NCBI GenBank assembly: GCA_945872795.1
Contig: CAMCAZ010000010.1
Coordinates: 2,135 to 66,134 of the forward strand
Length of the DNA stretch: 64,000 bases
Reading direction: 5' to 3'
Origin: Chryseobacterium gleum
GTDB taxonomy: Bacteria; Bacteroidota; Bacteroidia; Flavobacteriales_F; PHOS-HE28
Below, one piece after another: positions 30,475 to 48,675 of this stretch (the stretch's first letter is position 1; every line of letters starts with the position of its first letter). The notes below the pieces were generated by a model. The model worked only from the letters and a program-made list of their open reading frames with translations. It ran no database searches and was not told the DNA's origin. Position numbers and translations under genes: made by a program.

Positions 30475-33400
30475 TCAGTTCGCCCCATAGCGGGGATCTT
30501 GTTTCCACGGGAGCTTCTCCATGTGTTCCACGCTCAGGGAGCAGTGCCCGAATTCCTCCTCCACCTTGCCCGTGAGGCGATAGACGCCGCGCCCCCGGAA
30601 CGGATACTTCGCCTCCACATTGGGGAACTGCGTGCTGTCCCAGAAATCACCTGCCGGGTCGATGAAACTGCCGAAGCTCATGCGTTCCCCGGTGCCGGTC
30701 CGCGTGGGCTTCACGTGCACCACATAACCCAGCATGGTCACCGTGCGGCCGTTATGGGCAGGCATATCGCGGGCCAATATCACAGGAGGTGTGATGTGTG
30801 AAGTGTTTGGTGTGAACTGTGAAGTGGTCGCATTCCCATCGCGCCTTCGCGAAGCCTTCGGTGAAGCGAGGTCATCCGTTTGTCCGATCACCTGTTCGTC
30901 CGATCCGCCCTTGACCAGTAGGAAGGGATCGCACAGCGGGAAGCCGAGCAGTTCCAGTTCGTCATAGGCATCGCTGAGGTCGAAGTGCTGGAGTTCTGGC
31001 AGCTTCGTTTGCGGAGTTTTGGTGATGAAGAGGTCGACGCTGCGCTCGATGGCCTTCGCGCCGGGATGCAGCAGCGTGAGGTCCCACAGCAGCTCGGGTT
31101 TGCTCTTTCCGGTGAAGCGGAAGGCTCCCACGCGGATCAGCATGCGGGCCTGTTCCACGCCGATGGACACGCGGCGCAACAGGTCGGGGAGGTCGGCGAA
31201 GGGGCCGTGACGGCGGCGGTCCGTGAGGATGCGTTCCACCGTGGCGGAGTCCAGGGATCTGATGTTCCGGAGACCGAGATAGATGCTGGCCTTTAGCCGT
31301 GGGCTACTGGCTTCTGGCCGATCATCGGAACGGCCAGAAGCCAGCGGCCAAGGGCCAGCAGCGTGCAACGTGCAGAGCTCCCCGCTCCGGTCCACGCACG
31401 GTGCCTCGATCACCGCCCCGGCGCGTTTCGCCTCGTGCAGGTAGAACTCCGTGTGGTAGAAGCCGCCGAAGTTGTTCGCCACGGCCACCATGAACTCCAG
31501 CGGGTGGTAGGCCTTCAGGTAGAGGCTCTGATAGCTCTCCACCGCATAGCTGGCGCTGTGGCCCTTCGCGAAGCTGTAGCCGGCGAAGCTCTCGATCTGC
31601 CGCCAGATCTCGGCGCTCTCCTCCGCCGGGTAGCCCTTCTTCATGCAGTTGTCGAAGAAGCGCTCCTTCACGCGTTGGAACTCCTCCCGGCTGCGGTACT
31701 TGCCACTCATGCCGCGACGCAGGATGTCGGCCTCGGCCAGCGTGAGCCCCGCATACAGGTGCGCCACCTTGATCACGTCCTCCTGATAGACCATCACTCC
31801 GTAGGTGTCGGGCATGATCTTCAGCATCGCCGGGTGCGCCTGCTTGCGCCGTTCGGGATCGCGGTGCCGCAGGATGTACTCGCGCATCATGCCGCTCTGC
31901 GACACACCGGGTCGGATGATGCTGCTCGCCGCCACCAAGGTCAGGTAGTCCTGCACGCCCAGCTTCTTCAGCAGCATCCTCATGGCCGGGCTCTCCACAT
32001 AGAAGCAGCCGATGGTGTCGCCGGTGCGAAGGAGTTCGTTGATCTTCGGATCGTGCTTGAAGCGTTCGATGGCGTGAATATCGATCAGGGGTCGACCCAG
32101 TGGGTCGACGGTACGGGTGCTTCGACCATACGTAAGCGCCATCACTGCACCCGTTCCGATCGCCGTTTCAGGTTCCGGCTCGCTGGCCATCTGTGATGAG
32201 GTGCAATTCCCATTTTCTGATCGTCTGATCATCTGATCATCTGATCCGCATTCCACGAGCTCCACCGCATCCCGTATATGCCCCAGGCCCCGCTGGCTGA
32301 GGATGTCGAACTTATACAGCCCCAGGTCCTCGGCCTCGAGCATGCTGAACTGCGTGGTGGCGAAGCCCTTCGGCGGTAGGTGCAGCGCGGTGTAGTGGGT
32401 GAGGGGCTGCTCGCTGATCAGCACGCCGCCGACGTGGATGCTCAGGTGGTGCGGATGCTCATGGAAGTGCTCCGCGTAACGCAGGATGGTGCGGGCGATG
32501 CGTTCGTTGTCGATCTCCACGCTGCCGCCGTTCGAGGCCTTCGCGTTGTCGCCGCGCCCGATCCAGCGCGAGTGACCCGCATCCCCTTCGGCGAGCGCGT
32601 CGATGTCCGCCGGCGGAAGGCCGAAGACCTTGCCCAGTTCGCGCACCACGGCGCGGCGCTGGTACGTGCTGTACGTGGCGAGCAGCGCGACCCTGCGCTG
32701 TGCACCGTAGGTGTCGAAGAGGTACTGCGTTACCTGGTCACGGTCCTTCCAACTGAAGTCCAGGTCGAAGTCGGGCGGGCTGCTCCGGCTGGGGTTGATG
32801 AAGCGCTCAAAGTAGAGGTCGAGCTCGATGGGGTCCACGTCGGTGATGCCCAGGCAATAGGCCACCAAGCTGTTGGCGCCACTGCCGCGCCCCACGTGGA
32901 AGAAGCCCTTGCGCTTCGCGAAGCGGATCAGGTCCCAGTTGATCAGGAAGTAGCTCACGAAGTCCTTCTGGGCGATCACGGTGAGTTCGCGATCCATACG
33001 GTCCATCACCTTCTGCGAAGGTGCGGGATAGCGGCGAAGCAACCCCGCCTGGGTCTCCGTGCGCAGCAGTTCGAGGTCCGCTGAAGCATCATTGCTCCAG
33101 GTCCTCCGGTTCTTGCTCTTGCCATGGGCGAAGTGCACATCGCACTGGTCCATCAGGCGGCGCGTGTTCCACACCAGCTCGGGCACATCGGCGAAGGCGG
33201 TGCACACCTGCTCCTCGCTCAGGAAGCGGTTCTCCGGTACTGAGACATGTGCTGTCGGTGTGGTGCTCAGCAGGGTGTTGGTGTCCACCGCACGTTTCAA
33301 GCGGTGCACGTTGAAGTCGCGTTTGCCCAAGGGCACATCACTGTGGAAGGTGGCTGTGACCAGGGCGAGCAGCTTCTCTTTGCGTGCCATCCACGGCGAG

Positions 33401-33825
33401 AAGCGCAGGCGGTTCACATCGCCCGACCGCACGCCGATGAACTCGTTGGGGCGCAGTTTGGCCGGAATGTTCACGGCACCGTACAGGTAGATGATGAAGG
33501 CGTCCGGAAGTTCCGGTGCTTGTTCAGGAAGCGCGTTGCCGTCCAGCAACCGGTCCGTCAGCAGGGAGGCCAGCTGCTGCACTCCTGCGTTGTTCCGCGC
33601 GATGCCGATGTACAGCGTTCGTGCCCCCACTTTGAACTCGATCCCCGCCAAGGGCCGCACCTTGTATTTGTCCGCCAGCCGGAACAGGTCGCTCCAGCCC
33701 GCCGTGCAGTTGATGTCGGTGAGCGCCACCTGCTGAAGCCCCAGGTCGTGCACCTCCTGCAGCACCTGCTCGGGCGAGAGCACGCCGTGGTTGAGGCTGA
33801 ACCAGCTGTGGACGTTGAGGAGCAC
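30475..33825 (-). CDS. dnaE2: DNA polymerase III alpha-subunit family, error-prone DnaE2-like (1116 aa) with a 53-aa in-frame insertion
   Basis: N-terminal PHP domain, polymerase core motifs (GRGSGANSLVAYCLGITDVDP, FDLDF), OB-fold C-terminus. Length and N-terminus fit DnaE2 better than replicative DnaE. Confidence 0.75.
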   Translation of the reverse strand: MLLNVHSWFSLNHGVLSPEQVLQEVHDLGLQQVALTDINCTAGWSDLFRLADKYKVRPLAGIEFKVGARTLYIGIARNNAGVQQLASLLTDRLLDGNALPEQAPELPDAFIIYLYGAVNIPAKLRPNEFIGVRSGDVNRLRFSPWMARKEKLLALVTATFHSDVPLGKRDFNVHRLKRAVDTNTLLSTTPTAHVSVPENRFLSEEQVCTAFADVPELVWNTRRLMDQCDVHFAHGKSKNRRTWSNDASADLELLRTETQAGLLRRYPAPSQKVMDRMDRELTVIAQKDFVSYFLINWDLIRFAKRKGFFHVGRGSGANSLVAYCLGITDVDPIELDLYFERFINPSRSSPPDFDLDFSWKDRDQVTQYLFDTYGAQRRVALLATYSTYQRRAVVRELGKVFGLPPADIDALAEGDAGHSRWIGRGDNAKASNGGSVEIDNERIARTILRYAEHFHEHPHHLSIHVGGVLISEQPLTHYTALHLPPKGFATTQFSMLEAEDLGLYKFDILSQRGLGHIRDAVELVECGSDDQMIRRSENGNCTSSQMASEPEPETAIGTGAVMALTYGRSTRTVDPLGRPLIDIHAIERFKHDPKINELLRTGDTIGCFYVESPAMRMLLKKLGVQDYLTLVAASSIIRPGVSQSGMMREYILRHRDPERRKQAHPAMLKIMPDTYGVMVYQEDVIKVAHLYAGLTLAEADILRRGMSGKYRSREEFQRVKERFFDNCMKKGYPAEESAEIWRQIESFAGYSFAKGHSASYAVESYQSLYLKAYHPLEFMVAVANNFGGFYHTEFYLHEAKRAGAVIEAPCVDRSGELCTLHAAGPWPLASGRSDDRPEASSPRLKASIYLGLRNIRSLDSATVERILTDRRRHGPFADLPDLLRRVSIGVEQARMLIRVGAFRFTGKSKPELLWDLTLLHPGAKAIERSVDLFITKTPQTKLPELQHFDLSDAYDELELLGFPLCDPFLLVKGGSDEQVIGQTDDLASPKASRRRDGNATTSQFTPNTSHITPPVILARDMPAHNGRTVTMLGYVVHVKPTRTGTGERMSFGSFIDPAGDFWDSTQFPNVEAKYPFRGRGVYRLTGKVEEEFGHCSLSVEHMEKLPWKQDPRYGAN
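32089..32247. repeat. 159-bp interspersed repeat (copy A) inserted in-frame inside dnaE2
   Basis: GGTCGACCCAGTGGGTCGAC palindrome, ACGGGTGCTTCGACC block, CCATTTTCTGATCGTCTGATCATCTGATCATCTGATCC tail. Related copy at 46674-46795 and partial copies at 43408-43559. Confidence 0.8.
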
Positions 33826-33891
33826 GGATCATAGATCGACAGGATATACGTCGATCTGTTGATCATAAGGTAAGCGATCGACACTGCTGGC

Positions 33892-36800
33892 TTACAGCAC
33901 CAATCGATCATCCTCCCCCTCCCGGTCGAAGAACAAGTGGTCCGGGTCGAGCAAGACCTCCAAGGGCTTCAGGGACGTGGTGATGTGAACGTGGTTCTTC
34001 CCGCTGAGCGAACGTACCCGTTGCTTCACCTCTTTACCGCCTTCCACCCGTACACTGACATCGATCCAGTCGTTCATCGGCACCTCCGTTTCCTTTCCCG
34101 AGGGATCGGCATGGAGCTTCGCGCAGGTGATGGAAGCGGTAACGGTCCACGACCCATCCGTATGCTGTACGGCCGAGGCGGAGGACAGTGCGTTCCTGTG
34201 GAAGGTGATCTGCTCCAGACCATCCACCAACAGGTAGTGCAGACTGTCCGGGGTCACGGCCTCCAACGCGCGATACAGGTCAAGCGTGGTGGGGTAGGGG
34301 GCTTCACCGAAAGCGAAGGAATCCACCATCGATCGATAAGCGGAATTCACCTGTTCCTCGCCGATCAGGTCTCGCAGGGCATACATCACCACACTGCCTT
34401 TGTTGTAGTGGATGTACTGCTGGTCCTCCACCCGCATCAGCGGCAATTCCCCAATGCCTTCCTGTCCCCGACCGCGTAGGTAGTTGTCGCGCTCGTACTT
34501 CAGGAAGCGGCGCATCGCCTTGCGACCATACTCCTTCTCCATCACCATGAGCGCGGTGTATTGCGCCATGCTCTCCACGAGCATGGTGGATCCCTGCATG
34601 CGCGGCCCCAGCACCTGGTGGCCCCACCATTGATGGGCCACCTCGTGCGCCACCACGTAGTAGACCATGTCGATGCGGCTGGTGTCGCGCAGGTCGGTGA
34701 TGAAGCCGATGGCCTCGCTGTACGGCATGGTGCCCGGGAAGGATTGCGCGAAGCGGCGGTACCTGGGGAACTCGATGATGCGGGCCACCTCATGCTGATA
34801 GGGGCCGAATTCGGTGGAGGCATAGCTCAGTGCGTCACGCATGGCCTTCAACATGCGCGGAACGTTCGTGCCGTGCTCCGGATGGTGGTACACCTCCAAG
34901 GTGACCGGGCCGGCCTGCTCACGGGCCACTTGATAGCGCGCGCTCAGCACCGCCCAGAAGTTGAAGATGGGTGCCTGGCAGACGTAGCGGTACCAGCGTT
35001 TTCCATCCGCCGTCCAGTCCTTCACCAGGGTCCCCGGTGCGATACCGATCTGGTCCGGTGCGGTGCCGATGGTACAGGCGAAGCGGATGCGGTCGGCATG
35101 GTCCATGGTCTCGTTCGTGGCACGGTCACGCGGATCATCGCTCAAGGGTGCGGTGCGCGGTCGCACCGGTAGGCCGGCCTTTCGACGTTCGCCCGGTTCG
35201 GACAGCTCCACTTGGTCCTGGTAGCCGATCATGGGCAACAGGTCCATCGTGTTCAAGAAGGTCCCGTTCTCCACCAATGACAGGAACTCCACATCGTTCG
35301 TGAAGCCCTTGGGCGCCCATTCCCCGGTGACCACGACCCGTACGGAGTCGCCGGTGCTGAGGGAGCGATCCAAGCGGAACATCCGCTGGAAACGGGCGCT
35401 ATCGTTCAGCACCAAGCGGGCGCTCGGCACCTCGAAGCTCATGTGCATGTGATCGGGCAGGCTGAACCACAACGTATCCACCGGAGCGTCACCCTTGTTG
35501 GTGAGCATCATCTCAGCCGTGTATCGGATGCTGCGTTCCTCGGGCTCAAGCTCCACGGTGATATCCACGGCGGTGAAGTGTGGAAGAGCGGTGTTGGTGA
35601 AGCGCTTGTAGGTCCGTTCGTAGTCGACCTGGAGCGCCTCCGTATCCTGTTCGGTGACCGGTCGGTTCAGGATACGGGTGTTGTAGAAGCCGATGAGCAG
35701 CAACACGACCCACGCGCCGAATGCCAGAGCTCCCGTTCTCCAGGATCGCTTCCATCGGATCCCCGCGATGCGCCAGCGCCAACCCCAAGTGGTCTCACCA
35801 CCGCGCACCACGAAGAGCGAGGCGATGAAGAGCAGGCACACAGCGAAGGCGAGCCAGTAGGCCCGGAAGAACGTCCAGGGCATCATAAATGGACCGAAGC
35901 CGTTCATGTCCGAGTACAGCAGCCGAGGTCCGCCATAGAACACCAGTAGGTTGGACTCCACCTTCAGGAAGCGCCAGATCAGCGTGTTCACAGCGAAGAG
36001 CACGACGAACAGGCCGAAACCGACGTACTTATGGTGAACGAGCGTTTGGATGGTCAAGGCCACCATGGACCAGAACGCGAACGCGATGACGCCGGGCAGG
36101 ATGAAGCCCAGCAGGTAGGTCACGGGCTGGTTGTCGGTGTAGCCCTGCGCCAGTTGACCGATCACCCCGATCACGGCCATGAGTGTGAGGACGAACGCCC
36201 CGACAAGGATGAGCGTGCTGAGCTTGGCCAACAGGGGGAATGAGGTGCGCACAGGAAGCGCGTTCATGATCCCCTCCAGGCCGGCATCGCGATCACGCCA
36301 CAGGAGTTCACCGCTGTAGAAGGTGATCAGCACCATCACGAACAACATGGACATGCCCCGCAGCATCTCGGCCACGTGGTAGGTCACCGGCCAGCTGTGG
36401 TTGCCGAAGGCCGAGGTCACTTCGCTCAGGCTGATGGCGGTCATCAGTAGGCCGAGGCCAGTGATGATCCAGAACACGGGTGAGCCGAGAATGCCACGCA
36501 GATCGGAACCTATCAAAGCAAAGAAGCGCCTCCACTGGGATGTCCACCCATAGTGGAGTTGGATGTTCGGGAGCGTCTTATCCGCTCCGGAGTGCAGCGC
36601 TTCGTCAGCGACCTTGAGGTGACCGGGTCGCCGCCGTTCGGTGAACGTGAAGCGGAGGTACCCCACAAGGAAGATCACCGCTGCGATCCCCAGCCAGAGA
36701 AAGCGATTCCAGATGAGGGCGCCGCTCAATGGGAGCAGGGCGCTGTTCCGTTCATCCACGCTCCAGTAGCGCGTCACTTCATCCAGTGCCTGGTTGGCGA

Positions 36801-37428
36801 AAGGGTCCAAGAGCGCGGCAAGCAGACCATTGTCCACTTCCGTGGAATAGGCCGTGGCGATCACGTTGAGCACGACCAGGGCTATGGACGTGACGAACGC
36901 CGCTGCCGCCGAGCGTACCACGGTGGCCACCGCGAACATCACCGCGCTTTGGAAGAGGATGCTGGTCACCGCGAACAAGAGGAAGGTCTGCGCATGGACC
37001 ATCGGATCGTTCGGACCGAAGCGGATGGGGTCGCCCGAAGGGATCCAACTGCCGACGATGAGGCCCGCGGAGATCCCCAGCGTTGGGATGAGGGCCACCA
37101 CGGTGCTGCCCAGGAAGCGGCCCAGCACGTACTGGCGTTTACTGACCACCGTGCTGAACACGATGTCCGAGGTATGGTGTGCGAAATCGCGGATCGCGGT
37201 GGCGTTCACGAACGCCGTGACCATGGGGAGCCAAAGGAAGGCCAGGTTGGCATAGAGCTCATAGACGTGTGAGGGCGAGTTCACGTGCACCATCCCCGGG
37301 CTACCCTTGCCGCCGCTCTCGAACACCGCCAGTAAGCAGGCGAATGTGAAGGCCATGCCGAGGAAGATCCACAGCTGGGGTTGACGCAGCCAGAAGCGGA
37401 GCTCGAAGTGGATGAGGCGTGTGATCAT
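33892..37428 (-). CDS. fusion protein: N-terminal ABC-2-type permease (multi-TM) and C-terminal M1 zinc aminopeptidase domain (paralog 2)
   Basis: ~550-aa polytopic N-terminus; C-terminal gluzincin motif VVAHEVAHQWWGHQV…E (Glu at +20 rather than the canonical +19) and GxMEN-like region; paralogous to 37599-41210. Confidence 0.75.
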   Translation of the reverse strand: MITRLIHFELRFWLRQPQLWIFLGMAFTFACLLAVFESGGKGSPGMVHVNSPSHVYELYANLAFLWLPMVTAFVNATAIRDFAHHTSDIVFSTVVSKRQYVLGRFLGSTVVALIPTLGISAGLIVGSWIPSGDPIRFGPNDPMVHAQTFLLFAVTSILFQSAVMFAVATVVRSAAAAFVTSIALVVLNVIATAYSTEVDNGLLAALLDPFANQALDEVTRYWSVDERNSALLPLSGALIWNRFLWLGIAAVIFLVGYLRFTFTERRRPGHLKVADEALHSGADKTLPNIQLHYGWTSQWRRFFALIGSDLRGILGSPVFWIITGLGLLMTAISLSEVTSAFGNHSWPVTYHVAEMLRGMSMLFVMVLITFYSGELLWRDRDAGLEGIMNALPVRTSFPLLAKLSTLILVGAFVLTLMAVIGVIGQLAQGYTDNQPVTYLLGFILPGVIAFAFWSMVALTIQTLVHHKYVGFGLFVVLFAVNTLIWRFLKVESNLLVFYGGPRLLYSDMNGFGPFMMPWTFFRAYWLAFAVCLLFIASLFVVRGGETTWGWRWRIAGIRWKRSWRTGALAFGAWVVLLLIGFYNTRILNRPVTEQDTEALQVDYERTYKRFTNTALPHFTAVDITVELEPEERSIRYTAEMMLTNKGDAPVDTLWFSLPDHMHMSFEVPSARLVLNDSARFQRMFRLDRSLSTGDSVRVVVTGEWAPKGFTNDVEFLSLVENGTFLNTMDLLPMIGYQDQVELSEPGERRKAGLPVRPRTAPLSDDPRDRATNETMDHADRIRFACTIGTAPDQIGIAPGTLVKDWTADGKRWYRYVCQAPIFNFWAVLSARYQVAREQAGPVTLEVYHHPEHGTNVPRMLKAMRDALSYASTEFGPYQHEVARIIEFPRYRRFAQSFPGTMPYSEAIGFITDLRDTSRIDMVYYVVAHEVAHQWWGHQVLGPRMQGSTMLVESMAQYTALMVMEKEYGRKAMRRFLKYERDNYLRGRGQEGIGELPLMRVEDQQYIHYNKGSVVMYALRDLIGEEQVNSAYRSMVDSFAFGEAPYPTTLDLYRALEAVTPDSLHYLLVDGLEQITFHRNALSSASAVQHTDGSWTVTASITCAKLHADPSGKETEVPMNDWIDVSVRVEGGKEVKQRVRSLSGKNHVHITTSLKPLEVLLDPDHLFFDREGEDDRLVL

Positions 37429-37598: not shown

Positions 37599-40500
37599 TC
37601 ACTCCACCTCCACCTTCTTCACATTGTCCTGCATCACGCGATCGAAGAACAGGTTGTCGCGGTCGATCACGGCCTGCATGGGTTTCTCCTGTACGATGAA
37701 GGTCAGCTTGTTCACACCCGAGCGCAGGCGCAGCCGTTGGTGTACGAGCGGCACCTCGTTCAGCGACTTGTCCGCCTTCCTTCCCAGCTTTGGGTAGCGC
37801 AGGATGCTGACGTCCATCCAGTCGTTCATGGGAGCTGGTGTCTCGCGACCGAGGGAATCGGCATAGTTCTTCTCACCGAAGAGTTCGAGCGTCACTTCGT
37901 AGGTGCTGTCCGGCAACATGCGGGCGCTGGCCTTGTCCACCCGGTTGTTGTAAAGCGTGATCCGTTTGAAGCCATCGATCAGCAGGTACTCCAGGCTATC
38001 AGGTACCACCTGCTCCAGTTCGCGGTACATGTCCAGCGCGGTGGGGTATGGCGGCTCCGCATAAGCGAAGGTGTCCACCAGCGCCTTGAAGGCCCTGTTC
38101 AGGTTCTCCTCGCCCACGAAGTCGCGCAGGCCGTAGAGCACCACGCTCGCCTTGTTGTAGTGCACGTACGGCTGGTTCTCCACCTCCATCAGGGGCACCT
38201 CCTTCAGCTCCTCGGTGCCGCGTGCACGCTGGTACCGGTCGCTCTCCAGCTTCAGGAACTTGCGCATCTGCGCCCGGCCGTACTCGTCCTCCATCACCAT
38301 CAGGGCACTGTACTGGGACATGCTCTCGCTGAGGAGGGTGCTGCCCTGCATGTCGGCGCCGATCACTTGGTGGGCCCACCACTGGTGCCCCATCTCGTGC
38401 GCCACCACGTAGAACACCATGTCGATGTCGGTGGTGTCGCGCAGGTCGGCGATGAAACCGATGGACTCGCTGTAGGGCATGGTGCCCGGGAAGGCCTGGG
38501 CGAAGCTGAAGTACCGGGGGAACTCGATGATGCGCGCCTGCTTGTGGCGGTAGGGGCCGAAGTTGTCGCTGTAGTACTGGAGCGACTTGCGGATGCTGTT
38601 CGCCATGCGCGGCACGTTCTCGGCGTGGTCCGCGTGGTAATAGACCTCCACGTCCACACTCTGCCCTGAGCCTGTCGAAGGGTGCCACTTCTCACGGTGC
38701 ACCGCGTAGTCGGCGCTCATGAACGAGTAGAAGTTCATGCTCGGATGGTCCACCACGTACTCGAAATAGCGTTTGCCGTTCTCCGTCCACTCGCGCTTCA
38801 GGCTGCCCGGTGCGATGGCGATCTGGTCGGGCGTGGTGCTGATCACGGTGCGCACGGTCACCCAGTCACTGTTCGGCACCAGGTAGGTCTGCATGCGCGC
38901 TGCGCTATCGGCTGAGAGGCGCGGCATGCGCTCCTTCGCAGGAAGCCCGCGGTCCTTACGCTCGCTCTTGTCCTGCAGTTCGCCTCCGGCCGAGTAGCCG
39001 ATGCCGGGCAGCAGGTCCATGTTGTTGAAGAAGGTGCCGTTGTGGTTCAGTTGCGCCACGCGGGGCTCGTTCTCGAAGCCCTTCTCCACGTGGGTGGCGG
39101 TGACGGTGAAGCGTAGGTCCTCGCCGGGCATCAGGGGCCTGGCGAGCTTGTAGATGCGGTAGTTCACGCGCTCGTCGTTCAGCACTAGTTGAGCGCCGGG
39201 CAGGTCCACCTCCTGCTCGATGCCGCCGCCGCCCATGTTCAGGTGCAGCGAGTCGATCGGAGCGTTGCCCTTGTTGTGCACGGTGACCTCCGCCACGGCG
39301 TGCAGGCTGCGCTCGGCGGGTACCAGGTCGATGGTGAAGCGGATGTCGGTGTAGTGCGGCTGCAGCATGCCCTCGTACCGCTTGTAGGTGCGCTCGTAGT
39401 ATTCCAGGTCGTCCTCCATGGTGGAGGCATCGGGCATCTCGTTCAGCACCTTGGTATTGTAGTAACCCCAGGCGCCGAGCAGCACCCAGGCGGAGAGGGC
39501 GGGGATGGCGTATCGCTTGTTGGTGCGCAGGCGGCCCCCGGCGATGGCCAGTCGCTTGCGGAAATGTGTTTCCCGGCCGCGCACCCAGAAGAGCAGCGTG
39601 ATCACGAGCAGCACGGCGGAAAAGGCCCACCAATAGGCCTTGAACCACAGCCAGCCCGTGAGCGCCGTGCCATAAGTGTTCATGTCGCTGTAGCTGAGGT
39701 TCGGCGCGCTGTTGAACTGCACCAGGTGGCTCGTGACCTTGAGCGCCGGCCACAGGATGAGGTTCACGGCCAGCACCACGAGGAACACCGCATAGCCCAC
39801 GTACTTGTTATTCACCAGCACGTGGCAGAGGAACGAGAGCGCGGCCAGCGCCCCGAAGCCCAGCAGGCCGGGCACGATGTAGTAGCCGAGGTAGACACCC
39901 GGCTCGATGCGCGTGTAGCCGTTGATGAGCTGGAAGACCATGCCCCCCAGCGCAGTGACCAGCAATACGGTGAGCAGCAACAGCAGCAATGCCGTGTACT
40001 TCGCCAGCAGCCCGATGCCCAGCGGCAGCGGCGTGGCGTCATGCACCTCGTCCAGCTTGGGCTCGCGCTCTTTCCACACCAGCAGCCCGCTGTAGAAGAC
40101 GATGAGGATGGTGGTGAAGAGACCGAAGCCCCCTTCGATGACGTCGATGACGTTGTAGGTGACCGGGTGTATGGTGTTCTCGTAGAGCGAGGTGCTGAAC
40201 GAGAGGTTGAGGAACATGTTGAGCAGCCCTATGCCGGTGACGAGCAGGAAGGCCACGCCGCGGGTCATGCCGGTATAGTCGTTCCACGCAATGCGGCGGA
40301 ACTGCCGGATGCGCGCCACGGCGCCGTGGCTGCGATCCACCCGGGGCAGGGGCACGGCTGCTGGGGCCGCGACGGGACTCACGGCGGGCTCGGCCAGGGG
40401 CGCACGCTGCCGCCGGTCGGTGAAGCTGAAGCGCCAGTAGCCGAAGGCGAAGATGCCGGCGGCGACCGCGGTCCAAAGGATGCGGTTCCACAGCAGCACA

Positions 40501-41210: not shown

Positions 41211-42094
41211 GCCGCCACGGTGTTGGGGGTGTCCAGGATGCGGCTGAAGAAGACGTCCTCCAGCCCGGGCTCGGCCGCAGTGAAGCCGTCGCCCGGGGGC
41301 GTGTCGCTGAGGATGTGGATGGAGGGCCGCCCACTGATGAGCTTGTTGCTGATCACATGGTATCGGGCATGGTGATCCTCCAGCTCGGCCTTGGCGATGC
41401 TCTTCTCCCAGATGCGGCCCTTCACCTCGCGCAGCGCATCGTTCGGCGATCCGGCGAACAGCAGGCGTCCCTTGTTGATGATGGCCATGTTGCGGCAGAG
41501 TTCCTGCACGTCCTGTACGATGTGGGTGCTGAGGATCACCACCACGTTCTCGCCGATCTCCGTGAGCAGGTTGTAGAAGCGGTTTCGCTCGCCGGGGTCG
41601 AGGCCGGCAGTGGGTTCGTCAACGATGATGAGCTTGGGTTCGCCGATCAGCGATTGGGCGATGCCGAAGCGCTGCTTCATGCCTCCACTGAATCCGGCAA
41701 TGCGGCGCTTGCGGTGCTCCCACAGGTTCACCTTCTGCAGCAGCGCCTCCACCAGGTCCTTCCGCTGGCCGTTGTTGATCACCCCCTTCAACAGGGCGAT
41801 GTGGTCGAGCATCTGGTAGGCGCTCACCCGCGGGTACACCCCGAACTCCTGTGGCAGGTAGCCGAGCACCTTCCGCACCTCGTCCTTCTGGCGCAGCACA
41901 TCGATGTTCCCGAGCATCACCGTGCCGGCATCGGCCTCCTGCAGCGTGGCCAGGATCCGCATGAGCGAGCTCTTGCCCGCACCGTTGGGACCCAGCAGGC
42001 CGAACATGCCGGTGGGGATGGTGAGGGTGACGTTGTCCAGCGCCTTCACGCCATTGGCGTAGGTCTTGCTGAGGCCGTTGATGACAAGTTCCAT
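41207..42094 (-). CDS. ABC transporter ATP-binding protein
   Basis: Walker A GPNGAGKSS, Q-loop, signature LSGGMKQR, Walker B IIVDEPTAGLD, H-loop. Confidence 0.9.
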   Translation of the reverse strand: MELVINGLSKTYANGVKALDNVTLTIPTGMFGLLGPNGAGKSSLMRILATLQEADAGTVMLGNIDVLRQKDEVRKVLGYLPQEFGVYPRVSAYQMLDHIALLKGVINNGQRKDLVEALLQKVNLWEHRKRRIAGFSGGMKQRFGIAQSLIGEPKLIIVDEPTAGLDPGERNRFYNLLTEIGENVVVILSTHIVQDVQELCRNMAIINKGRLLFAGSPNDALREVKGRIWEKSIAKAELEDHHARYHVISNKLISGRPSIHILSDTPPGDGFTAAEPGLEDVFFSRILDTPNTVAA

Positions 42095-42248: not shown

Positions 42249-43161
42249 TCACTCCTCCCCGAAGAAGTCGCTGTCGATGCGCTTCACAGCGTAGGTGCGC
42301 TGGGTGGTGACGCCGAGATCGTGGTCGATCATCAGTTGGGTGAGCTCCTCACCGTCGAGAAGGACGATCTTGGTCTCGTTGCGGGGTATGTACTCGCGGG
42401 CTTCTTTGCTGAACGAAGAGGTGGTGATGAAGATGCCCTTCTTTGCGCCCTGCCCGGCCAATGCTCCTACGAACTTCTGGATCTCTGGACGGCCCACGGT
42501 GTTGCCGGTATTCCACTTCTTGGCTTGGATGTAGATGATGTCCAGCCCCAGTTTGTCCTCTTTGATGGTGCCGTCGATGCCTTCGTCGCCACCCTTGGTA
42601 AGCGCACGACCTGCGTCCTTCACGGAACCGCCGTATCCCATGCGTACGAGCAGCTGCACCACGAGGCGTTCGAAGTCCATCCAGGTGAGGGATCGGACTT
42701 TTGCGAGGAGTTCTTGGCCGATGGTTTCCCGGATCTGTTCGTATGCACCATCCAGTAATTCTTCCGGTGTGCGCGAGTTGTCCGCGTCGGCGGTCTGGGC
42801 TGAAGGAGTATTATCCCGCTTCATGGTCTGGAACTCCACGAATTCCGGGAAGCGTCTGAGGTAGCCTACGTCGATGCGTTCCGGTTTTTGCTTCAGTATC
42901 TCCAAGCCACGAGGCGTTATCTGCATCATCGCGCGTTTGGGTGAAGCGACCAGACCGGCCTTCTTGAGATACGTACGTGCCCATCCTACGCGGTTGTCGA
43001 ACGCGGCCTGCATACCGCTCTAGCATCTCACGTCGCTCCTCCTCGGTCAGTTTGAACTGTGTGGCCAAGCCCTCCACAACATCACGAAGTGCATGCACCC
43101 TGTTGTCGGATAGATAGCTCAACAAGGGCAACATGATGCTTTGATAATCGGGAACGGCCAT
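42249..43161 (-). pseudogene. mrr: Mrr-family type IV restriction endonuclease, interrupted by a frameshift near 43010
   Basis: Mrr N-terminal winged helix (MAVPDYQSIMLPLLSYLSD…) in one frame (43161-~43010) and Mrr catalytic domain (…NRVGWARTYLKKAGL…GIDG…IYIQAKKW) in another frame (42249-43013). Confidence 0.7.
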
Positions 43162-43407
43162 GATGTGATCGGTTCAGTTGAGAGGGTAAGATCGTTGATC
43201 CATCCGGTTGTTGTGCGTGAGGGATGGTAGCGGCAGCTTGCCGCCGGACCGGCCCAGCAGCGTAAGGAGCGAGGAGGCCCGACGATAGGAGGGACCCCGC
43301 AGCCCGATGCGATGCGGGCCGGGCCAAGGCAACTACAGCGGACAGCCCGACCCCGCGCGCTGGCCGGTGGGAGGAAGGGGGGCACGCCCGAAGGCCAATC
43401 AGACTAT

Positions 43408-43559
43408 GAGAAGATCAGACGATCAGATGATCGCCCGCGCGCATGCCCACCCCAATGCCGATCAAATGGTCACAAGATCCTGGCTGTGGTTCTTCGCTGG
43501 TATGGTCGGCGGCAGGCATTTCCATTTTCTGATCTTCTCATTTTCTGATCGTCTGATCC
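43408..43559. repeat. MITE-like structure: inverted copies of the GATCAGACGATCAGA / TCTGATCGTCTGATC motif flanking ~110 bp
   Basis: 43408-43432 GAGAAGATCAGACGATCAGATGATC and 43523-43559 CATTTTCTGATCTTCTCATTTTCTGATCGTCTGATCC, same motif family as 32208-32247 and 46752-46795. Confidence 0.6.
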
Positions 43560-43564
43560 CCTAT

Positions 43565-43615
43565 GTTCTCCTATTCGCCAACAATACCGGCGCCTGTCCA
43601 TCGAAGGGGCGTTAT
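43565..43615 (-). repeat. orphan copy of the dinB 3' terminus (encodes PFDGQAPVLLANRRT-stop on the minus strand)
   Basis: ~80% identical over ~70 bp to 45391-45460; within the 16 shared codons all 7 nucleotide differences are synonymous. Confidence 0.75.
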
Positions 43616-43740
43616 CACGGCCGCAATGCCGAGCAATAGTTTCGGTTCCGTATTATTGCCATACGAACCAGTGCGGAGGTGCTGTGGCATTAGTCGGGAG
43701 CGCATGGCAGGATTCAGAGCGGTTCGAGAAGCTCTTCGTC

Positions 43741-45381
43741 ATGAAAACCCTTTACACCCTTTTGGCGACCTCGGTGATCCTGAGCACGGATCTCGTGGCA
43801 CAGACGTTCTCGAACACCACAGCAGCTGCCTGCAACACGTGGGATTCGGGGAATGCCTACACGGGTTTTCAACGGACCATCGCAGTGGCCGCCTTGCCTA
43901 CGCCGTTGGGCGCTTCGGGAACGGTCTTGCGCCAAGTGAACCTGCAACTGGGCACTGCGGCGTGCAAAGGCAACCTGTCCACGTACTACGCACGCATCGT
44001 ATCACCTACGGGTACTGTCATCCAGTTGTTCGGGCCGTTCACCACGACGAGCACGAGCCAATGGATGAACATCAAGTTCCGAGATGACATCGCCTTGGAA
44101 CGTGTCCGCGACTACAGCACGACCACGCAACAGGGCTACCACCCGTGGAACGTAGGCTACTGCCGCACGGATGCGGTCAATGCGTTCACCACGGTGAACG
44201 GGGAAGACCCGAACGGCAACTGGACCTTCCAATTGGCTGAGAACACGACATCCGAGGTCTCGTTCCAACGTGTTGAACTCGTCTTCGGGCCACCCATCGT
44301 CGTGACCGATGTGACCGGTGGCTCAGGAAACGATTTCTGCAGCGGGGCCACCTGTATCGATGGATTGTCCGTGATCCGCGGAACGAACCTCGCTTATCCG
44401 CCACTTGATCCCTTTTACCCGGGCGATGTGGTGGGTGGCTGTGGTTGGAACGGTGCGAACAACAATAACGGATGGTACCGCTTCGTCGCATCCGGAACCA
44501 CAGCGAACATCACTGTGAGCGGCATGGTGAACACCACCGGTACAGGCACGGCGGACATGCAACTGGTCGTGGTCCAGCAGACCAACCCCATCTGCTCCGG
44601 TCCTCCGACCCTAGTGCCGACGGGAGGCTGTCCGGACCCCCCCGGTGTGAACAATACATCTTATGCCGCGCCGAACGGTGGTGTTGGTACAATGGCCAAT
44701 GTTTACTTGAACGGGATCACTGCGAATTGCGAGTTCAACCTCTCGGGGCTTACGGCCGGGAACAGCTATTACCTGATCATCGATGGGAACGGTGGTTTGT
44801 CATCCACCTTCTACATCGAGATGCCGAGTGGCGGGATCGACTGCAACATCCTGCTGCCGGTCACGTGGACGGCTTTCAACGTGGAATGCGAGATGGGCAA
44901 CCGGCGGATCTCCTGGACGGTGGCTACCCAGCAGGACAATGATCATTTCGAAGTGGAACGCAGTCTGGACGGCTCCTCTTGGAATGTGTTCGCTACTGTT
45001 CCCGGGGAAGGGACCACGCAAACGACCATGTCCTATGAAGTGCTGGACGACAACAGCGATATGCTCTTCGAACAGCCACTGATCTATTACCGGGTGAAAC
45101 AAGTGGACGTGAACGGGAACTTCAGCTTCACGCCGGTCGAGGCGAGCAGTTGTTCTGTGCTGCTGTACCCCAATCCGGCAAGCGATCACATCATCGTGGC
45201 TGTGCCCTTTGCCGGTGTCGATGTGCAGCTAGTGGATGCCATCGGACGGGTGGTGGAGATGCGCAAGACGCAAGGCACTACCATTCGGATGGACATCGGC
45301 CATCTGGCCTCCGGTTATTATGCGTTGCAGCTCCTCAGTTCTGGTGACCTGCTTGGCTCGGCCGTGGTGGTCAAGTTCTGA
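43741..45381 (+). CDS. secreted protein with proprotein-convertase P-domain-like module and T9SS type-A C-terminal sorting domain
   Basis: Signal peptide MKTLYTLLATSVILS; P-domain-like GEDPNGNWTFQLAENT; C-terminal LLYPNPASDHIIVAVP… CTD. Confidence 0.65.
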   Translation: MKTLYTLLATSVILSTDLVAQTFSNTTAAACNTWDSGNAYTGFQRTIAVAALPTPLGASGTVLRQVNLQLGTAACKGNLSTYYARIVSPTGTVIQLFGPFTTTSTSQWMNIKFRDDIALERVRDYSTTTQQGYHPWNVGYCRTDAVNAFTTVNGEDPNGNWTFQLAENTTSEVSFQRVELVFGPPIVVTDVTGGSGNDFCSGATCIDGLSVIRGTNLAYPPLDPFYPGDVVGGCGWNGANNNNGWYRFVASGTTANITVSGMVNTTGTGTADMQLVVVQQTNPICSGPPTLVPTGGCPDPPGVNNTSYAAPNGGVGTMANVYLNGITANCEFNLSGLTAGNSYYLIIDGNGGLSSTFYIEMPSGGIDCNILLPVTWTAFNVECEMGNRRISWTVATQQDNDHFEVERSLDGSSWNVFATVPGEGTTQTTMSYEVLDDNSDMLFEQPLIYYRVKQVDVNGNFSFTPVEASSCSVLLYPNPASDHIIVAVPFAGVDVQLVDAIGRVVEMRKTQGTTIRMDIGHLASGYYALQLLSSGDLLGSAVVVKF

Positions 45382-45390
45382 ACGGTCAGG

Positions 45391-46638
45391 CTACGTCCTC
45401 CTATTCGCCAACAACACCGGTGCCTGCCCATCAAAAGGGTTGTCCATCCGCCCGATGCTCTTCGCATCCATGCCGGCCGCGCGCATCACGGTGCGGTCGC
45501 CGAAGCGCTTGCGGATCTTGTCCATGGCCTGGTACAGGTCCATGGCCTCCTGCGTGTCGGTGAAGGCATCCATCTGGTGGCCGCCACCCACCAGGTGACT
45601 GAAGCGCACGCCGATCAAGCGGATCCGTTGGCGACGGTCGTACAGCGCGCGGAAGAGGTCGTGTACTGCGGGTAGGATGATGTGGTCGCAGGCCGTGTAG
45701 CCCACGCGCGCTTGTTTGGTGTGCGTGTTGAAATCGGCGTAGCGGATCTTCACCGCGATGCAGCTGGTGAGCTTGTCGCCCTTGCGCAATTGGAAGGCGA
45801 GGCTTTCGGCCATGGCGGTGAGCAGGCCTTTCAGTTTCACCACATCGATGGTATCGCGCTCGAAGGTGCGCTCCGTGCTGATGCTCTTGCGCTCGTGCCA
45901 GGCGATCACCGGACTATCATCGATGCCGTTGGCCTTGCGCCACAGCACAGGCCCGTGCTCGCCCAACAACCGGTGCATCAGGTCCACCTGCAGCTCTTGT
46001 AGCGTGTGGATCTTCGCCACGCCCATGCTGCGCAACAGGTGCGCGGTCTTCTCGCCCACGCCGGGGATGCGTTCTATGGGCATGGGCGCCAGGAAGGGTT
46101 TCTCCGTGCCGCGCTCCACGTACCATTCGCCCGCGCCGTTCTTCGCCTCGCCGGTGGCCACCTTGCTCACCGTCTTGTTGATGCTCAGCCCGAACGAATT
46201 CGGCAGCCCGCTATCCTTGATGATCTTCTGCCGCAGCTCCACCGCCAGCTTCCTGCTGCCGTGGAATTTGTCGGTGCCGCTCAGGTCCACGTAGAATTCG
46301 TCCACGCTGCTCTTCTCGAACAGCGGCACGTTCGCGCGGATGATCTCCGTCACCTCATCGCTCTTCTTCAGGTACGCTCCGCTGTCGCCGCGCAGGATGA
46401 TCGCCTCCGGGCACAACTGCTTGGCCATCTTCATCGGCATCGCGCTGCGCACCCCGAAGGCCCGCGCCTCGTAGCTGCAACTGGCCACCACGCCGCGGTC
46501 GCTGTCGCTCCCGATCAGCACGGGTCTCCCGTTCAGCTTCGGGTTCTCCAGCCGTTCCACGCTCACGAAGAAGGTATTGAGGTCCAGGTGGAGGATGGTT
46601 CGTTCGCCGTTGATCATTCTACATTCTTCATTCATCAT
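45391..46638 (-). CDS. dinB: Y-family DNA polymerase IV
   Basis: Catalytic LDLNTFFVSVE and SVDEFYVD motifs; little-finger domain; 415 aa. Confidence 0.85.
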   Translation of the reverse strand: MMNEECRMINGERTILHLDLNTFFVSVERLENPKLNGRPVLIGSDSDRGVVASCSYEARAFGVRSAMPMKMAKQLCPEAIILRGDSGAYLKKSDEVTEIIRANVPLFEKSSVDEFYVDLSGTDKFHGSRKLAVELRQKIIKDSGLPNSFGLSINKTVSKVATGEAKNGAGEWYVERGTEKPFLAPMPIERIPGVGEKTAHLLRSMGVAKIHTLQELQVDLMHRLLGEHGPVLWRKANGIDDSPVIAWHERKSISTERTFERDTIDVVKLKGLLTAMAESLAFQLRKGDKLTSCIAVKIRYADFNTHTKQARVGYTACDHIILPAVHDLFRALYDRRQRIRLIGVRFSHLVGGGHQMDAFTDTQEAMDLYQAMDKIRKRFGDRTVMRAAGMDAKSIGRMDNPFDGQAPVLLANRRT

Positions 46639-46673
46639 TTTTCATTCCCCCTGCTGCCATCACCACGCTGTTA

Positions 46674-46795
46674 GGTCGACCCAGTGGGCCCGAGGCCTCG
46701 GGCGACACTACGGGTGCTTCGACCCAGATACCTGCATACCATCGTCCACAGGCATTCCCATTATCTGATCGTCTGATCATCTCATTATCTGATCC
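46674..46795. repeat. interspersed repeat copy B (122 bp), 36 bp upstream of the dinB start
   Basis: GGTCGACCCAGTGGG, an added GCCCGAGGCCTCGGGC palindrome, ACGGGTGCTTCGACC, CCCATTATCTGATCGTCTGATCATCTCATTATCTGATCC. Confidence 0.8.
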
Positions 46796-46976
46796 GTAGT
46801 TGGCCGCCTTAACGGGCTGTTCGCTGTAGTCCCGCACGGCCATGCCAGCGGTGGCGGCACTGCGGGGTTCCGCCGTACGGCGGACCTCCTCGTTGCACGC
46901 CCCCACAAGGCCCGGCCGTGCGGGAGCTGCCGCTCCCATCCCTGGCGGAAGATCCCGTCCCACCAACAGTTTCGTG

Positions 46977-47026
46977 TTGACAAAATATCTGTCATGTTGC
47001 AGTCGGTAAATTAGTCATTAGATTTG
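46977..47026 (+). promoter_or_regulatory. candidate operator palindrome TGACA-N7-TGTCA overlapping a Bacteroidetes-type promoter (-7 box TAGATTTG at 47019-47026) for the ORF6N/lexA-like operon
   Basis: Palindrome TTGACAAAATATCTGTCATG at 46977-46996; TAnnTTTG motif ~25 bp before the ORF6N start. Confidence 0.4.
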
Positions 47027-47050
47027 TCCGTCGGATAACTGGTCAACAGA

Positions 47051-47790
47051 ATGATGGGAACCCTGGCAATCAACCTTCGTCCTGCCGAAGCCTCTGGCGT
47101 AGGAGGACTCACCCGCAAGTCCCCGCACACGGACCTGCTGCCCTTGGAGTACCTCGTGGCCGCGGAACCTGCGCCTACCTACACGCCCGTGGCCCCGCCC
47201 GATGCCGCCATCACCGGCCGCATACACATCATCCGTGGGCAAAAGATCATGTTGGATCGCGACCTTGCTGAACTCTACGGCGTGGAGACCAAACACCTCA
47301 AGCGCCAAGTGAGAAGGAACCTGGGTCGCTTTCCGGAGGACTTCATGTTCGAACTTACCGCAGCGGAATGGGCCACTTTGAGGTACCAATTTGGCACTTC
47401 AAAGGACGAAATGCTCTCAGAACGAGGCGGTTCCAGGGTGCTCCCCATGGCCTTCACCGAGCAAGGCGTGGCCATGCTATCCAGCGTCTTGAACAGCGAG
47501 CAGGCCATCCTGGTCAACATCCATATCATTCGTGTCTTCTCACGTACCTGCCTGCCGGCAGGCAGGTGCGCGAAGTGCTCCTTTCGCACCGAGAGATCCT
47601 CCAGAAACTGGAACAACTCGAGGGTCGCCTCACCGGCCACGACGAGGAGGTCCAGGCCATTTTCGATCACCTCACGGAACTGGTCTCCCCAGCGGAGCAA
47701 GCGCGTAAGCCTATCGGCTTCAAACCGGAAGCTTCATCACCTTCTACTTGTCCGCCAGCTCCCAACTCCGGCAACTGTTCACCCGCATAA
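47051..47790 (+). pseudogene. ORF6N/KilA-N-domain protein, frameshifted at a 22-bp palindrome
   Basis: ORF6N domain ([21 protein letters not shown]…FPEDFMF…[25 protein letters not shown]) in frame 1; conserved C-terminal coiled-coil ([21 protein letters not shown]…PIGFKPE) continues in another frame from ~47560. Confidence 0.65.
47546..47567. repeat. perfect 22-bp palindrome ACCTGCCTGCCGGCAGGCAGGT at the ORF6N frameshift point
   Basis: Seen directly in sequence; homology switches reading frame across it. Confidence 0.8.
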
Positions 47791-47847
47791 GACGGTCCTT
47801 CAACCGTCATAGGACATTCCCTTCAACCGTCATAAGACACCCTTCAC
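47781..47847 (+). promoter_or_regulatory. tandem direct repeats (CCTTCAACCGTCATAGGACATTC / CCTTCAACCGTCATAAGACACCC, plus a third CATAAGAC half-site) immediately upstream of the lexA-like start
   Basis: Seen directly in sequence; two ~23-bp units and three CATARGAC cores within 65 bp. Confidence 0.5.
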
Positions 47848-48675
47848 ATGGCAAATCCCGTCTTCGGCTCCAACATCAAGCTCCTGCGCACCCGCCGTGG
47901 CCGCTCGCAAGAAGAGACCGCCATCGCCCTCGAGGTGAAACGTTCCAGCTACAGCGGCTACGAGAACGGTACGGCAGAACCCTCGTTCGAGCTGCTCGTA
48001 CGCATGAGCGAGTACTTCAAGGTGAGCATCGACAAACTGCTGCGCGATGATCTGGGCGCCCTCAGCGACAGCCAGATGGGCGTGCTGGAGCGCGGTGGTG
48101 ACATCGACCTCAGCGGTAGGCGCCTGCGGGTGCTGGCCACCACGGTCGATCGCGAGGACCGCGAGAACGTGGAACTGGTGCCCGAGAAGGCCAAGGCCGG
48201 CTACGCGCTGGGCTACGCCGATCCGGAGTACATCAGCATCCTGCCCACCTTCCAGATGCCCTTCCTGGCGCGTGACCGCAAGTACCGGACCTTCCAGATC
48301 AGCGGCGACAGCATGCCCCCCGTGGCGGACGGTTCCTGGGTCACCGGCGAGTATGTGCAGAACTGGCAGACCGTCCGCGATGGCCAGCCGTACATCGTGG
48401 TCACCAAGGATGATGGCATCGTCTTCAAGGTGGCCTACAACCAACTGAAGGAAAAGGGCACCCTACTGCTGTGCAGCACCAACCCGCTCTACGCGCCCTA
48501 CGAGGTGCAGGTCACCAATGTGCTGGAGATCTGGAAGTTCGTGCACTTCATCAGTGCCGAGCTGCCCGAGCCCAACATGAGCCGGGATGAGCTCGCCCGA
48601 AGCGTGGTGGAGCTTCGAAAGGAGGTGGGGCAGTTGCGCCTGGCCATGGAGCAGCAAGGGAGGCTGTCGTTCTGA
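47848..48675 (+). CDS. LexA-like repressor: XRE-family HTH fused to S24 peptidase (autocleaving) domain
   Basis: N-terminal HTH (IKLLRTRRGRSQEETAIALEV…), C-terminal S24 domain with catalytic Ser (FQISGDSMPP) and Lys region (GQPYIVVTKDDGIVFK). Confidence 0.8.
   Translation: MANPVFGSNIKLLRTRRGRSQEETAIALEVKRSSYSGYENGTAEPSFELLVRMSEYFKVSIDKLLRDDLGALSDSQMGVLERGGDIDLSGRRLRVLATTVDREDRENVELVPEKAKAGYALGYADPEYISILPTFQMPFLARDRKYRTFQISGDSMPPVADGSWVTGEYVQNWQTVRDGQPYIVVTKDDGIVFKVAYNQLKEKGTLLLCSTNPLYAPYEVQVTNVLEIWKFVHFISAELPEPNMSRDELARSVVELRKEVGQLRLAMEQQGRLSF

Follow-up and report, generated by a model that had tools for sequence, protein, structure and literature searches.

The 64,000-nucleotide stretch of DNA examined here (Chryseobacterium gleum, GenBank assembly GCA_945872795.1, contig CAMCAZ010000010.1, positions 2,135 to 66,134; hereafter the window) contains genes for a repressor with an XRE-type helix-turn-helix (HTH) and an S24 peptidase domain, a Y-family DNA polymerase (dinB) and a DnaE2-like C-family polymerase (dnaE2). 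We suggest that these three genes probably represent the Bacteroidetes SOS mutagenesis module in rearranged form, with parts that have come to lie apart and yet would still be co-regulated in trans. An earlier note on this DNA, made from its letters alone, had described a known repressor/Y-family/dnaE2 cassette that was pulled apart by inserted DNA and whose dnaE2 might now depend on read-through from an upstream operon. That view was right as to the cassette and its disruption, imprecise as to the kind of cassette and probably wrong as to read-through. Gene identities were assigned by Pfam and NCBIfam profile searches, and the open reading frames (ORFs) listed in the note were confirmed at the same coordinates. 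The three genes lie within 18 kb, and both polymerase genes are on the minus strand with dinB upstream, the gap of ~11.5 kb between them being 11,565 bp (from 45391 to 33825). The window has a G+C content of ~60%.

Operator-type palindromes upstream of the separated genes

Exactly two sites matching YGACR-N7-YGTCR were present in the 64 kb, one in the common control region of dinB and the repressor and the other 9 nt ahead of the dnaE2 start. The first has the form TGACA-N7-TGTCA (46978-46994) and is the only match to TGAC-N9-GTCA in the window. The second lies in a spacer of 66 bp that separates dnaE2 from the preceding gene, copy b of a fusion between an ABC-2 permease and an M1 peptidase (M1b). 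In this spacer, a -7-like box (TACCTTAT, 33865-33872) is followed by the palindrome AGATCGAC-N9-GTCGATCT (33833-33857, with the core CGACR-N7-YGTCG at 33837-33853), which stops 7 nt before the GTG start codon.

Both sites recurred in related genomes, whose loci are given L numbers below. The 46978-46994 palindrome was conserved in place in L002, L007, L009, L022 and L023, and was found before dnaE2 in L021, L031, L032, L036 and L039. Of 40 Flavobacteriales loci, 25 had a YGACR-N7-YGTCR site no more than 65 nt before dnaE2, compared with 0.03 sites per kb overall, and several other loci had such a palindrome with one mismatch. The detached dinB genes of L027, L028, L032, L037, L038 and L041 were preceded by the same module of a box and a GATCGAC-N9-GTCGATC palindrome. 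In these control regions the conserved palindrome directly follows the -7-like box, as seen in the window and L007 (TGACAGATATTTTGTCA and TGACAGGTATTTTGTCA), in L022 and L023 (TGACGGATATATCGTCA) and in loci where dnaE2 abuts the repressor gene (TGACGGTTTCCGCGTCA). No YGACR-N7-YGTCR site, even with one mismatch, was detected upstream of the ABC transporter, M1, Mrr restriction endonuclease or type IX secretion system (T9SS) substrate genes that separate the two polymerase genes. Of the promoters that the earlier note had proposed to search for a shared palindrome, the dinB/repressor region has one and the ABC operon has none, and a related palindrome is present before dnaE2.

Since dnaE2 has a -7-like box and a palindrome of its own, read-through from the ABC operon appears unneeded, and we conclude that each detached polymerase gene carries its own putative promoter/operator of the same class. 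Co-regulation would then act in trans. The dinB gene and the transcription unit composed of an ORF6N-domain gene and the repressor gene would share the operator TGACA-N7-TGTCA, and dnaE2 would respond through the related palindrome CGACR-N7-YGTCG, which together with a separate -7-like box lies immediately ahead of its start codon. DNA damage would give rise to RecA filaments and thereby to self-cleavage of the repressor, after which both promoters would open and DinB, DnaE2 and RecA could assemble for translesion synthesis. Binding of the repressor to both palindromes, damage inducibility and complex formation are predictions from sequence. A tentative, though in our opinion quite possible, extension is that YGACR-N7-YGTCR represents a third operator class for non-canonical LexA proteins, which together with the -7 box forms a compact module that goes with a detached polymerase gene. 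In these uncultured, high-GC Flavobacteriales, the cassette might in this way have been scattered by insertions and inversions without losing SOS control, while dnaE2, under purifying selection, repeatedly took up in-frame repeats at three inter-domain linkers.

Several points weigh against the proposed explanation. The -7 boxes were assigned from the Bacteroidetes consensus rather than from mapped transcription starts. The repressor/dinB palindrome starts with T (TGAC), whereas that of dnaE2 has C in this place and a conserved stem that extends further (GATCGAC), and a different regulator could read the latter. No intrinsic terminator was detected in the spacer after M1b, and some contribution of read-through to dnaE2 expression is therefore possible; a scan for sigma-70 promoters and terminators, with a tool that does not cover Bacteroidetes promoters, gave counts equal to chance and no useful site. 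The genomes used for comparison are all metagenome-assembled genomes (MAGs). Finally, the published motif CTAA-N5-TTAG had no match in the window even with one mismatch, and GGA-N5-TCC was absent from the dinB/repressor and dnaE2 upstream regions and matched elsewhere only. The YGACR-N7-YGTCR palindrome is also not among the variants with a 5-bp spacer in Table S10 of PMC8565304. The candidate operator thus appears to be new, and both of its variants are presumed to be bound by the XRE-S24 protein.

One alternative is that the dnaE2 palindrome serves another regulator or functions as a hairpin of the 5'-untranslated region, and that dnaE2 is uncoupled from dinB and the repressor. Its outer base C instead of T, the invariant extended stem GATCGAC that is absent at the repressor's own site and the 8-bp hairpin that it would form as RNA are consistent with this possibility. 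However, it has the same geometry (GACR-N7-YGTC) and the same place after a -7-like box as the repressor-proximal site. In addition, the two types are exchanged among relatives: the T-type site stands before dnaE2 in the five loci where this gene adjoins the repressor (L021, L031, L032, L036 and L039), and the C-type site stands before the detached dinB. Position 5 varies between R and Y without the base pair being kept, which argues against a selected RNA stem. We consider such uncoupling rather unlikely.

An explanation along the lines of the earlier note, in which dnaE2 has lost its own control and depends for most of its expression on transcripts that run on from the ABC/M1 operon, seems quite unlikely. 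It would fit the position of dnaE2 after M1b on the same strand, 66 bp away and with no intrinsic terminator detected in between. However, these 66 bp hold the -7-like box and the operator-type palindrome (33837-33853), and the module accompanies dnaE2 irrespective of the preceding gene, be it Mrr in L023 or unrelated genes in L024, L025, L030, L035, L037 and L038. The ABC operon itself has no operator.

Linkage of the three genes in related genomes

Window proteins were mapped onto each of 80 genome loci encoding DnaE2 relatives; the closest proteins and loci all came from MAGs labelled Flavobacteriales bacterium, and the contig collection contained no exact match to the DnaE2 of the window. 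The same trio was linked in many of these genomes, and its linkage therefore exceeds chance, which refutes the view that relatives never have these genes together. Three relatives had a contiguous cassette, and others had Mrr, the T9SS-substrate gene or ABC/M1 genes at varied positions and in varied orientations (Table 1), which supports the idea of a cassette that was pulled apart.

Table 1. Arrangements of the repressor, dinB and dnaE2 genes among related loci
Arrangement	Loci
Repressor divergent from dinB and dnaE2, contiguous, 9-21 nt between the polymerase genes	L022 (DnaE2 60% identical), L044 (48%), L079 (Parvicellaceae, 45%)
Repressor, dinB and dnaE2 with Mrr alone between dinB and dnaE2	L023
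Window layout, dinB ... ABC-M1 ... dnaE2	L002, L009, L020 (independent MAGs)
ABC-M1 directly upstream of dnaE2, dinB beyond the DNA compared	At least eight further clade members
Repressor and ORF6N divergent from dnaE2, then M1, ABC and dinB on the opposite strand	L032
Repressor-dnaE2 junction as in L032	L021, L031, L036, L039
Opposite-strand M1-ABC-dinB part as in L032	L027, L028, L038
dnaE2 and dinB convergent	L037, L041

The contiguous repressor/dinB-dnaE2 arrangement is likely the older state, because the two polymerases have adjacent accession numbers in C. algicola and Rufibacter, in line with published statements, and because the deep outgroups L044 and L079 are contiguous. Judged by these deep outgroups, contiguity in L022 is probably not the result of a secondary deletion. 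A single inversion failed to interconvert the window arrangement (type II) and the L032-like arrangement (type III); at least two nested inversions are needed. In the ancestral layout, the repressor gene would have diverged from dinB-dnaE2 with a single operator between the divergent promoters, and the ABC/M1 operon, the Mrr gene, the T9SS-substrate cassette and several repeats would have come between dinB and dnaE2 later. The ABC/M1 insertion is old and not recent, since it is common to more than 15 species-level genomes. Thus, when the earlier note spoke of a landing zone used repeatedly, this held for repeated insertion and rearrangement (Mrr at three positions, duplication of M1, repeats, the T9SS cassette and an inverted layout in another clade), but not for ABC/M1 as a recent arrival. 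In both main arrangement types, dinB, ABC and M1 follow one another in this order on one strand, with a variable gap of 1.7-2.5 kb.

It is very improbable that chance alone brought three unrelated genes together here, namely a dinB with housekeeping function, the gene of a CI repressor of prophage type and a dnaE. The CI-like repressor is encoded after a gene for ORF6N, a domain common in phages, and DinB passes a generic Pol IV model, as would be expected in that case. Synteny largely refutes this explanation: the trio or pairs of its genes stay linked at DnaE2 identities from 45% to 93%, despite many rearrangements. They also have an operator-type palindrome in common, no phage genes are nearby, and the module is described in the literature (PMC8565304, PMC6511836, PMC12926913).

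DnaE2B, PolY2 and non-canonical LexA

Sequence alignments place the DnaE protein of the window in the DnaE2B group, the class being taken from sequences in the supplement of PMC12926913, as NCBIfam assigned neither DnaE1 nor DnaE2, also for orthologs free of inserts. It was 46% identical to C. algicola DnaE2B (ADV50501) over the first 400 amino acids (aa) (E 5e-115), collinear from residue 2, and 24% identical to M. tuberculosis DnaE2A. The polymerase aspartates are intact, its PDFDLDF and KFDIL motifs aligning with E. coli D401, D403 and D555, whereas the PHP metal ligands are lost (H to N, D to H and H to I compared with M. tuberculosis DnaE1). The protein starts directly with the PHP domain and has no counterpart to the final ~85 positions of the DnaE1 profile; alignments of insert-free orthologs stop by ~position 1062 of 1146. 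Bacteroidetes DnaE1 entries start with MYLIFDTETTGLP, are ~1430-1484 aa long and have an N-terminal DnaQ-like domain.

In the profile searches, window DnaE2 scored 523 bits on the DnaE1 equivalog model (cutoff 1002) and 480 bits on the NCBIfam 'error-prone DNA polymerase' model NF004225 (cutoff 939), on which its orthologs scored 410-494 bits. Bacteroidetes DnaE2B proteins are without an NCBIfam naming model; falling below both cutoffs, they are therefore named only Pol III alpha by automated pipelines. Among the best 120 orthologs listed (P0001-P0120), all source names were 'DNA polymerase III subunit alpha' or PolC, with scores around half of the DnaE1 and DnaE2 cutoffs.

The ratio of nonsynonymous to synonymous substitution rates (dN/dS) within the clade having the split arrangement was 0.16-0.19 for dnaE2, 0.12 for dinB and 0.07 for the repressor gene; the value for dnaE2 indicates that the detached gene is under purifying selection. 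Compared with the contiguous cassette of L022, dN was 0.26 for dnaE2 and 0.10 for both dinB and the repressor gene, showing that dnaE2 has diverged much faster than its partners; protein identities were 60% for DnaE2, 87% for DinB and 85% for the repressor.

A second dnaE was found neither in the window nor in any of the 82 loci to which the search extended. The idea that the DnaE-like gene codes for the sole replicative Pol III alpha of the organism, which the absence of another dnaE from these loci, the names given by the sources and the slightly higher score on the DnaE1 than on the DnaE2 model (both below cutoff) might suggest, is extremely improbable in view of strong, if indirect, evidence: the missing C-terminal ~85 profile positions (the tau-binding region) and DnaQ-like domain, the loss of PHP ligands, the tolerance of in-frame repeat insertions with divergence faster than that of the neighbours, the operon with dinB under an S24 repressor in relatives, and orthology to DnaE2B of C. 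algicola, whose genome also has DnaE1. In the table of Timinskas and Venclovas, complete genomes with DnaE2B have one DnaE1 listed as well.

DinB passed the Pol IV equivalog cutoff (NF002677, 273 versus 256 bits), and its catalytic D and DE residues aligned with D8, D103 and E104 of E. coli Pol IV. It was 58% identical over 396 aa to the Bacteroid-PolY2 polymerase of C. algicola (ADV50500), with alignment over the full length including the C-terminal tail. This tail (LYQAMDKIRKRFGDRTVMRAAGMD) aligned with residues 11-41 of E. coli RecA (E 1e-4, with a typed-in RecA sequence) and with C. algicola RecA (E 0.008). These features identify it as a catalytically intact polymerase of the Bacteroid-PolY2 type with a tail resembling the RecA N-terminus.

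The S24 protein is a non-canonical LexA of the Bacteroidetes kind. It has HTH_3 (residues 10-64) and Peptidase_S24 (residues 138-226) domains, and its C-terminal 175 residues were 51% identical (E 2e-64) to WP_151079958.1 from the alignment of PMC8565304, with the Ala-Gly site (KAKAGY), serine (ISGDSM) and lysine (IVFK) in register with that alignment. When the intact L032 ortholog was used as a tblastn query, the preceding ORF6N gene broke into two frames at ~47545/47566. The frameshift sits at a 20-bp palindromic insertion (CCTGCCTGCCGGCAGGCAGG), a lesion also present in L007; the gene is intact in L021, L031 and L032 (180-194 aa).

Taken together, the trio is the Bacteroidetes PolY2 and DnaE2B (plus RecA) module under a non-canonical LexA. 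A classical lexA/imuA/imuB/dnaE2 cassette was ruled out, as ImuA is absent and the Y-family partner is not an inactive ImuB. No RecA-like or ImuA ORF was found in the 28-51 kb region of the window, and neither imuA, imuB nor a replicative DnaE1 was found within its 64 kb. Thus, the functional set named in the earlier note is indeed contiguous in relatives, but its kind is not the widespread one with inactive ImuB.

Inserted genes and repeats

Pfam searches confirmed ABC/M1 genes, an mrr pseudogene and a T9SS gene between dinB and dnaE2, the last of which is a T9SS substrate with a C-terminal sorting domain and not a component of the secretion machinery. The repeat copies reported in dnaE2 and in the dinB promoter region were likewise found, at 32098-32250 and 46674-46943. 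Features of the region are listed in Table 2.

Table 2. Features of the dispersed module and the intervening DNA in the window
Feature	Position	Strand	Basis
dnaE2 (DnaE2B-type error-prone C-family polymerase, 1116 aa, GTG start)	30475..33825	-	Pfam PHP, DNA_pol3_alpha, finger, HHH_6
Repeat element, in frame within dnaE2	32098..32250	-	Repeat family, alignment break
dnaE2 control module (-7-like box and palindrome; putative)	33833..33872	-	Position, conservation
ABC-2 permease / M1 peptidase fusion, copy b, inserted DNA, lineage-specific duplicate	33892..37428	-	Pfam
ABC-2 permease / M1 peptidase fusion, copy a, inserted DNA	37599..41210	-	Pfam, synteny
ABC transporter ATPase, inserted DNA	41207..42094	-	Pfam and NCBIfam
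Mrr restriction endonuclease pseudogene, frameshifted	42249..43161	-	Mrr_cat and partial Mrr_N (Pfam)
~210-bp repeat element, inverted relative to the 46760-46943 copy	43220..43431	+	Collinear inverted-repeat arms I1-I3
49-nt duplicate of the dinB 3' end	43561..43609	.	Direct repeat of 45391-45439, 86% identical
T9SS C-terminal sorting domain gene, secreted protein, inserted cargo	43684..45381	+	Por_Secre_tail (Pfam, NCBIfam)
dinB, Bacteroid-PolY2-type Y-family polymerase (predicted active), RecA-N-terminus-like tail	45391..46638	-	Pfam and NCBIfam
Repeat element between operator/promoter and dinB start codon	46674..46943	-	Absent in L022, L023
Operator-type palindrome TGACAAAATATCTGTCA, between divergent dinB and ORF6N-repressor promoters	46978..46994	.	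Sole TGAC-N9-GTCA in the window
ORF6N-domain gene, frameshifted, first in the repressor transcription unit	47051..47812	+	Pfam
Non-canonical LexA (XRE-type HTH and S24 peptidase)	47848..48675	+	Pfam HTH_3 and Peptidase_S24

The M1 fusion genes a and b are arranged in tandem and contain a 300-nt repeat of 77% identity; most relatives have a single copy. The Mrr gene consists of a catalytic ORF (42249-43013, minus strand) and N-terminal codons in another frame up to 43161, and is therefore a frameshifted pseudogene. Mrr is intact in relatives, for example in L006 (9104-9865), L023 (9178-9936) and L028 (19901-20650), and its position varies, being between M1 and dnaE2, between dinB and dnaE2, or between dinB and ABC.

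An octamer repeat motif, TCTGATCR, had 11 matches compared with 0.44 expected by chance, all within 32.2-46.8 kb. The in-frame insert in dnaE2 (32098-32250) comprises 51 codons (~526-576) and separates palm from fingers; the alignment to E. coli DnaE is interrupted at just this place (query residues 524/577). The insert is missing in the orthologs of L022-L026, L032, L036, L041, L044, L048 and L079. Further in-frame, repeat-derived segments of low complexity were seen at ~31285-31362 and ~30796-30903, giving three inter-domain linkers in all; one such DnaE2 segment, ...SDDQMIRRSENG..., is a translation of TCTGATCR octamer repeats. DnaE2 orthologs differed in what they carried at these three sites, some having other inserts and some none, and ranged from 976 to 1229 aa in length.

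Rickettsia palindromic elements are repeats that insert in frame into protein-coding genes. The dnaE2 repeats resemble them in that a short repeat within an intact ORF adds a peptide at a tolerated surface or linker position, and differ in the element family (TCTGATCR octamer repeats and a GGTCGACCCAGTGGG hairpin), the host phylum and the target gene.

The two ~210-bp copies (43220-43431 and 46760-46943) are inverted and 77-88% complementary and bracket the T9SS-substrate gene and dinB, providing a plausible substrate for inversions among related genomes; an additional repeat copy is located at 43506-43560. The repeat between the operator/promoter and the dinB start codon has no equivalent in L022 and L023, in which the operator directly adjoins dinB. 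The T9SS-substrate segment is 1.8 kb long and holds only that gene, with no integrase. It is flanked by direct duplicates of the 49-nt 3' end of dinB, both in the window (43561-43609 and 45391-45439) and in L041 (14690-14736 and 16518-16566). The cargo gene, which is next to dinB in L041, was 92% identical between the window and this locus, and DnaE2 only 57%. The segment resembles a small cassette that moves or recombines, with the dinB 3' end as its target. Elsewhere in the window, the 3' end of tRNA-Pro(GGG) and its downstream hairpin (82 nt) are repeated at 99% identity 360 bp further on (18236-18310, 18280-18361 and 18640-18721), which resembles a leftover attachment-site duplication.

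Comparison with known systems

We regard the system as one of a known kind, of which the split architecture with a self-contained operator-like module and an unreported operator motif is a variant. Its new elements are modest and comprise a motif unlike both published ones, a promoter/operator module that appears to stay with each detached gene, and the in-frame repeats in dnaE2. It documents the physical dismantling of an SOS mutagenesis module with coordinated control apparently kept, and widens the range of the Bacteroidetes SOS system, itself described only recently, to an uncultured clade of wastewater and freshwater Flavobacteriales. The candidate operator may be used for predicting the SOS regulon of MAGs in this clade. 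An annotation gap is also exposed, as DnaE2B is named 'DNA polymerase III subunit alpha' and is thus confusable with the replicase. The in-frame repeats mark DnaE2 linkers that tolerate extra peptide, which could be useful for structural models of PolY-DnaE2B-RecA.

The PolY-DnaE2B-RecA module was described by Timinskas and Venclovas in 2019 (PMC6511836) and 2026 (PMC12926913), who paired the C. algicola Bacteroid-PolY2 polymerase ADV50500 with DnaE2B ADV50501. The window genes resemble this pair in having a predicted active DinB of the PolY2 group with a RecA-N-terminus-like tail (58% identity), a DnaE2B (46% within the first 400 aa) whose polymerase site is intact and whose PHP site is degenerate, and no ImuA or ImuB nearby. 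However, polY and dnaE2 do not form one operon in the window, being separated by 11.5 kb and six other, unrelated genes, and dnaE2 is preceded by a separate promoter/operator-like module and contains in-frame repeats.

Non-canonical LexA repressors, including those that control a dinB-dnaE operon, were described by Sanchez-Osuna et al. in 2021 (PMC8565304). Like them, the window repressor combines PF01381 HTH and S24 domains and has the Ala-Gly site and the Ser-Lys dyad, and a member of their CTAA-N5-TTAG cluster shows 51% identity to it. Its gene likewise diverges from genes for error-prone polymerases and has a promoter that contains a palindrome. In contrast to the published repressors, CTAA-N5-TTAG and GGA-N5-TCC are not at the window promoters, which instead have the conserved TGACR-N7-YGTCA with longer spacing. 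In addition, an ORF6N gene, frameshifted in the window, often precedes the repressor gene in this clade.

The classical imuA-imuB-dnaE2 cassette likewise combines a Y-family protein and a second DnaE under an S24 repressor and is induced by DNA damage, which for the window is predicted. Split versions with an SOS box for each part are known, such as imuA'-imuB and dnaE2 of M. tuberculosis, a mycobacterial case cited in PMC6511836. The window differs from the classical cassette in that it has no ImuA, its Y-family partner is catalytically intact and lacks the ImuB-C domain, its DnaE2 belongs to group B and not A, and its repressor is not a winged-helix LexA.

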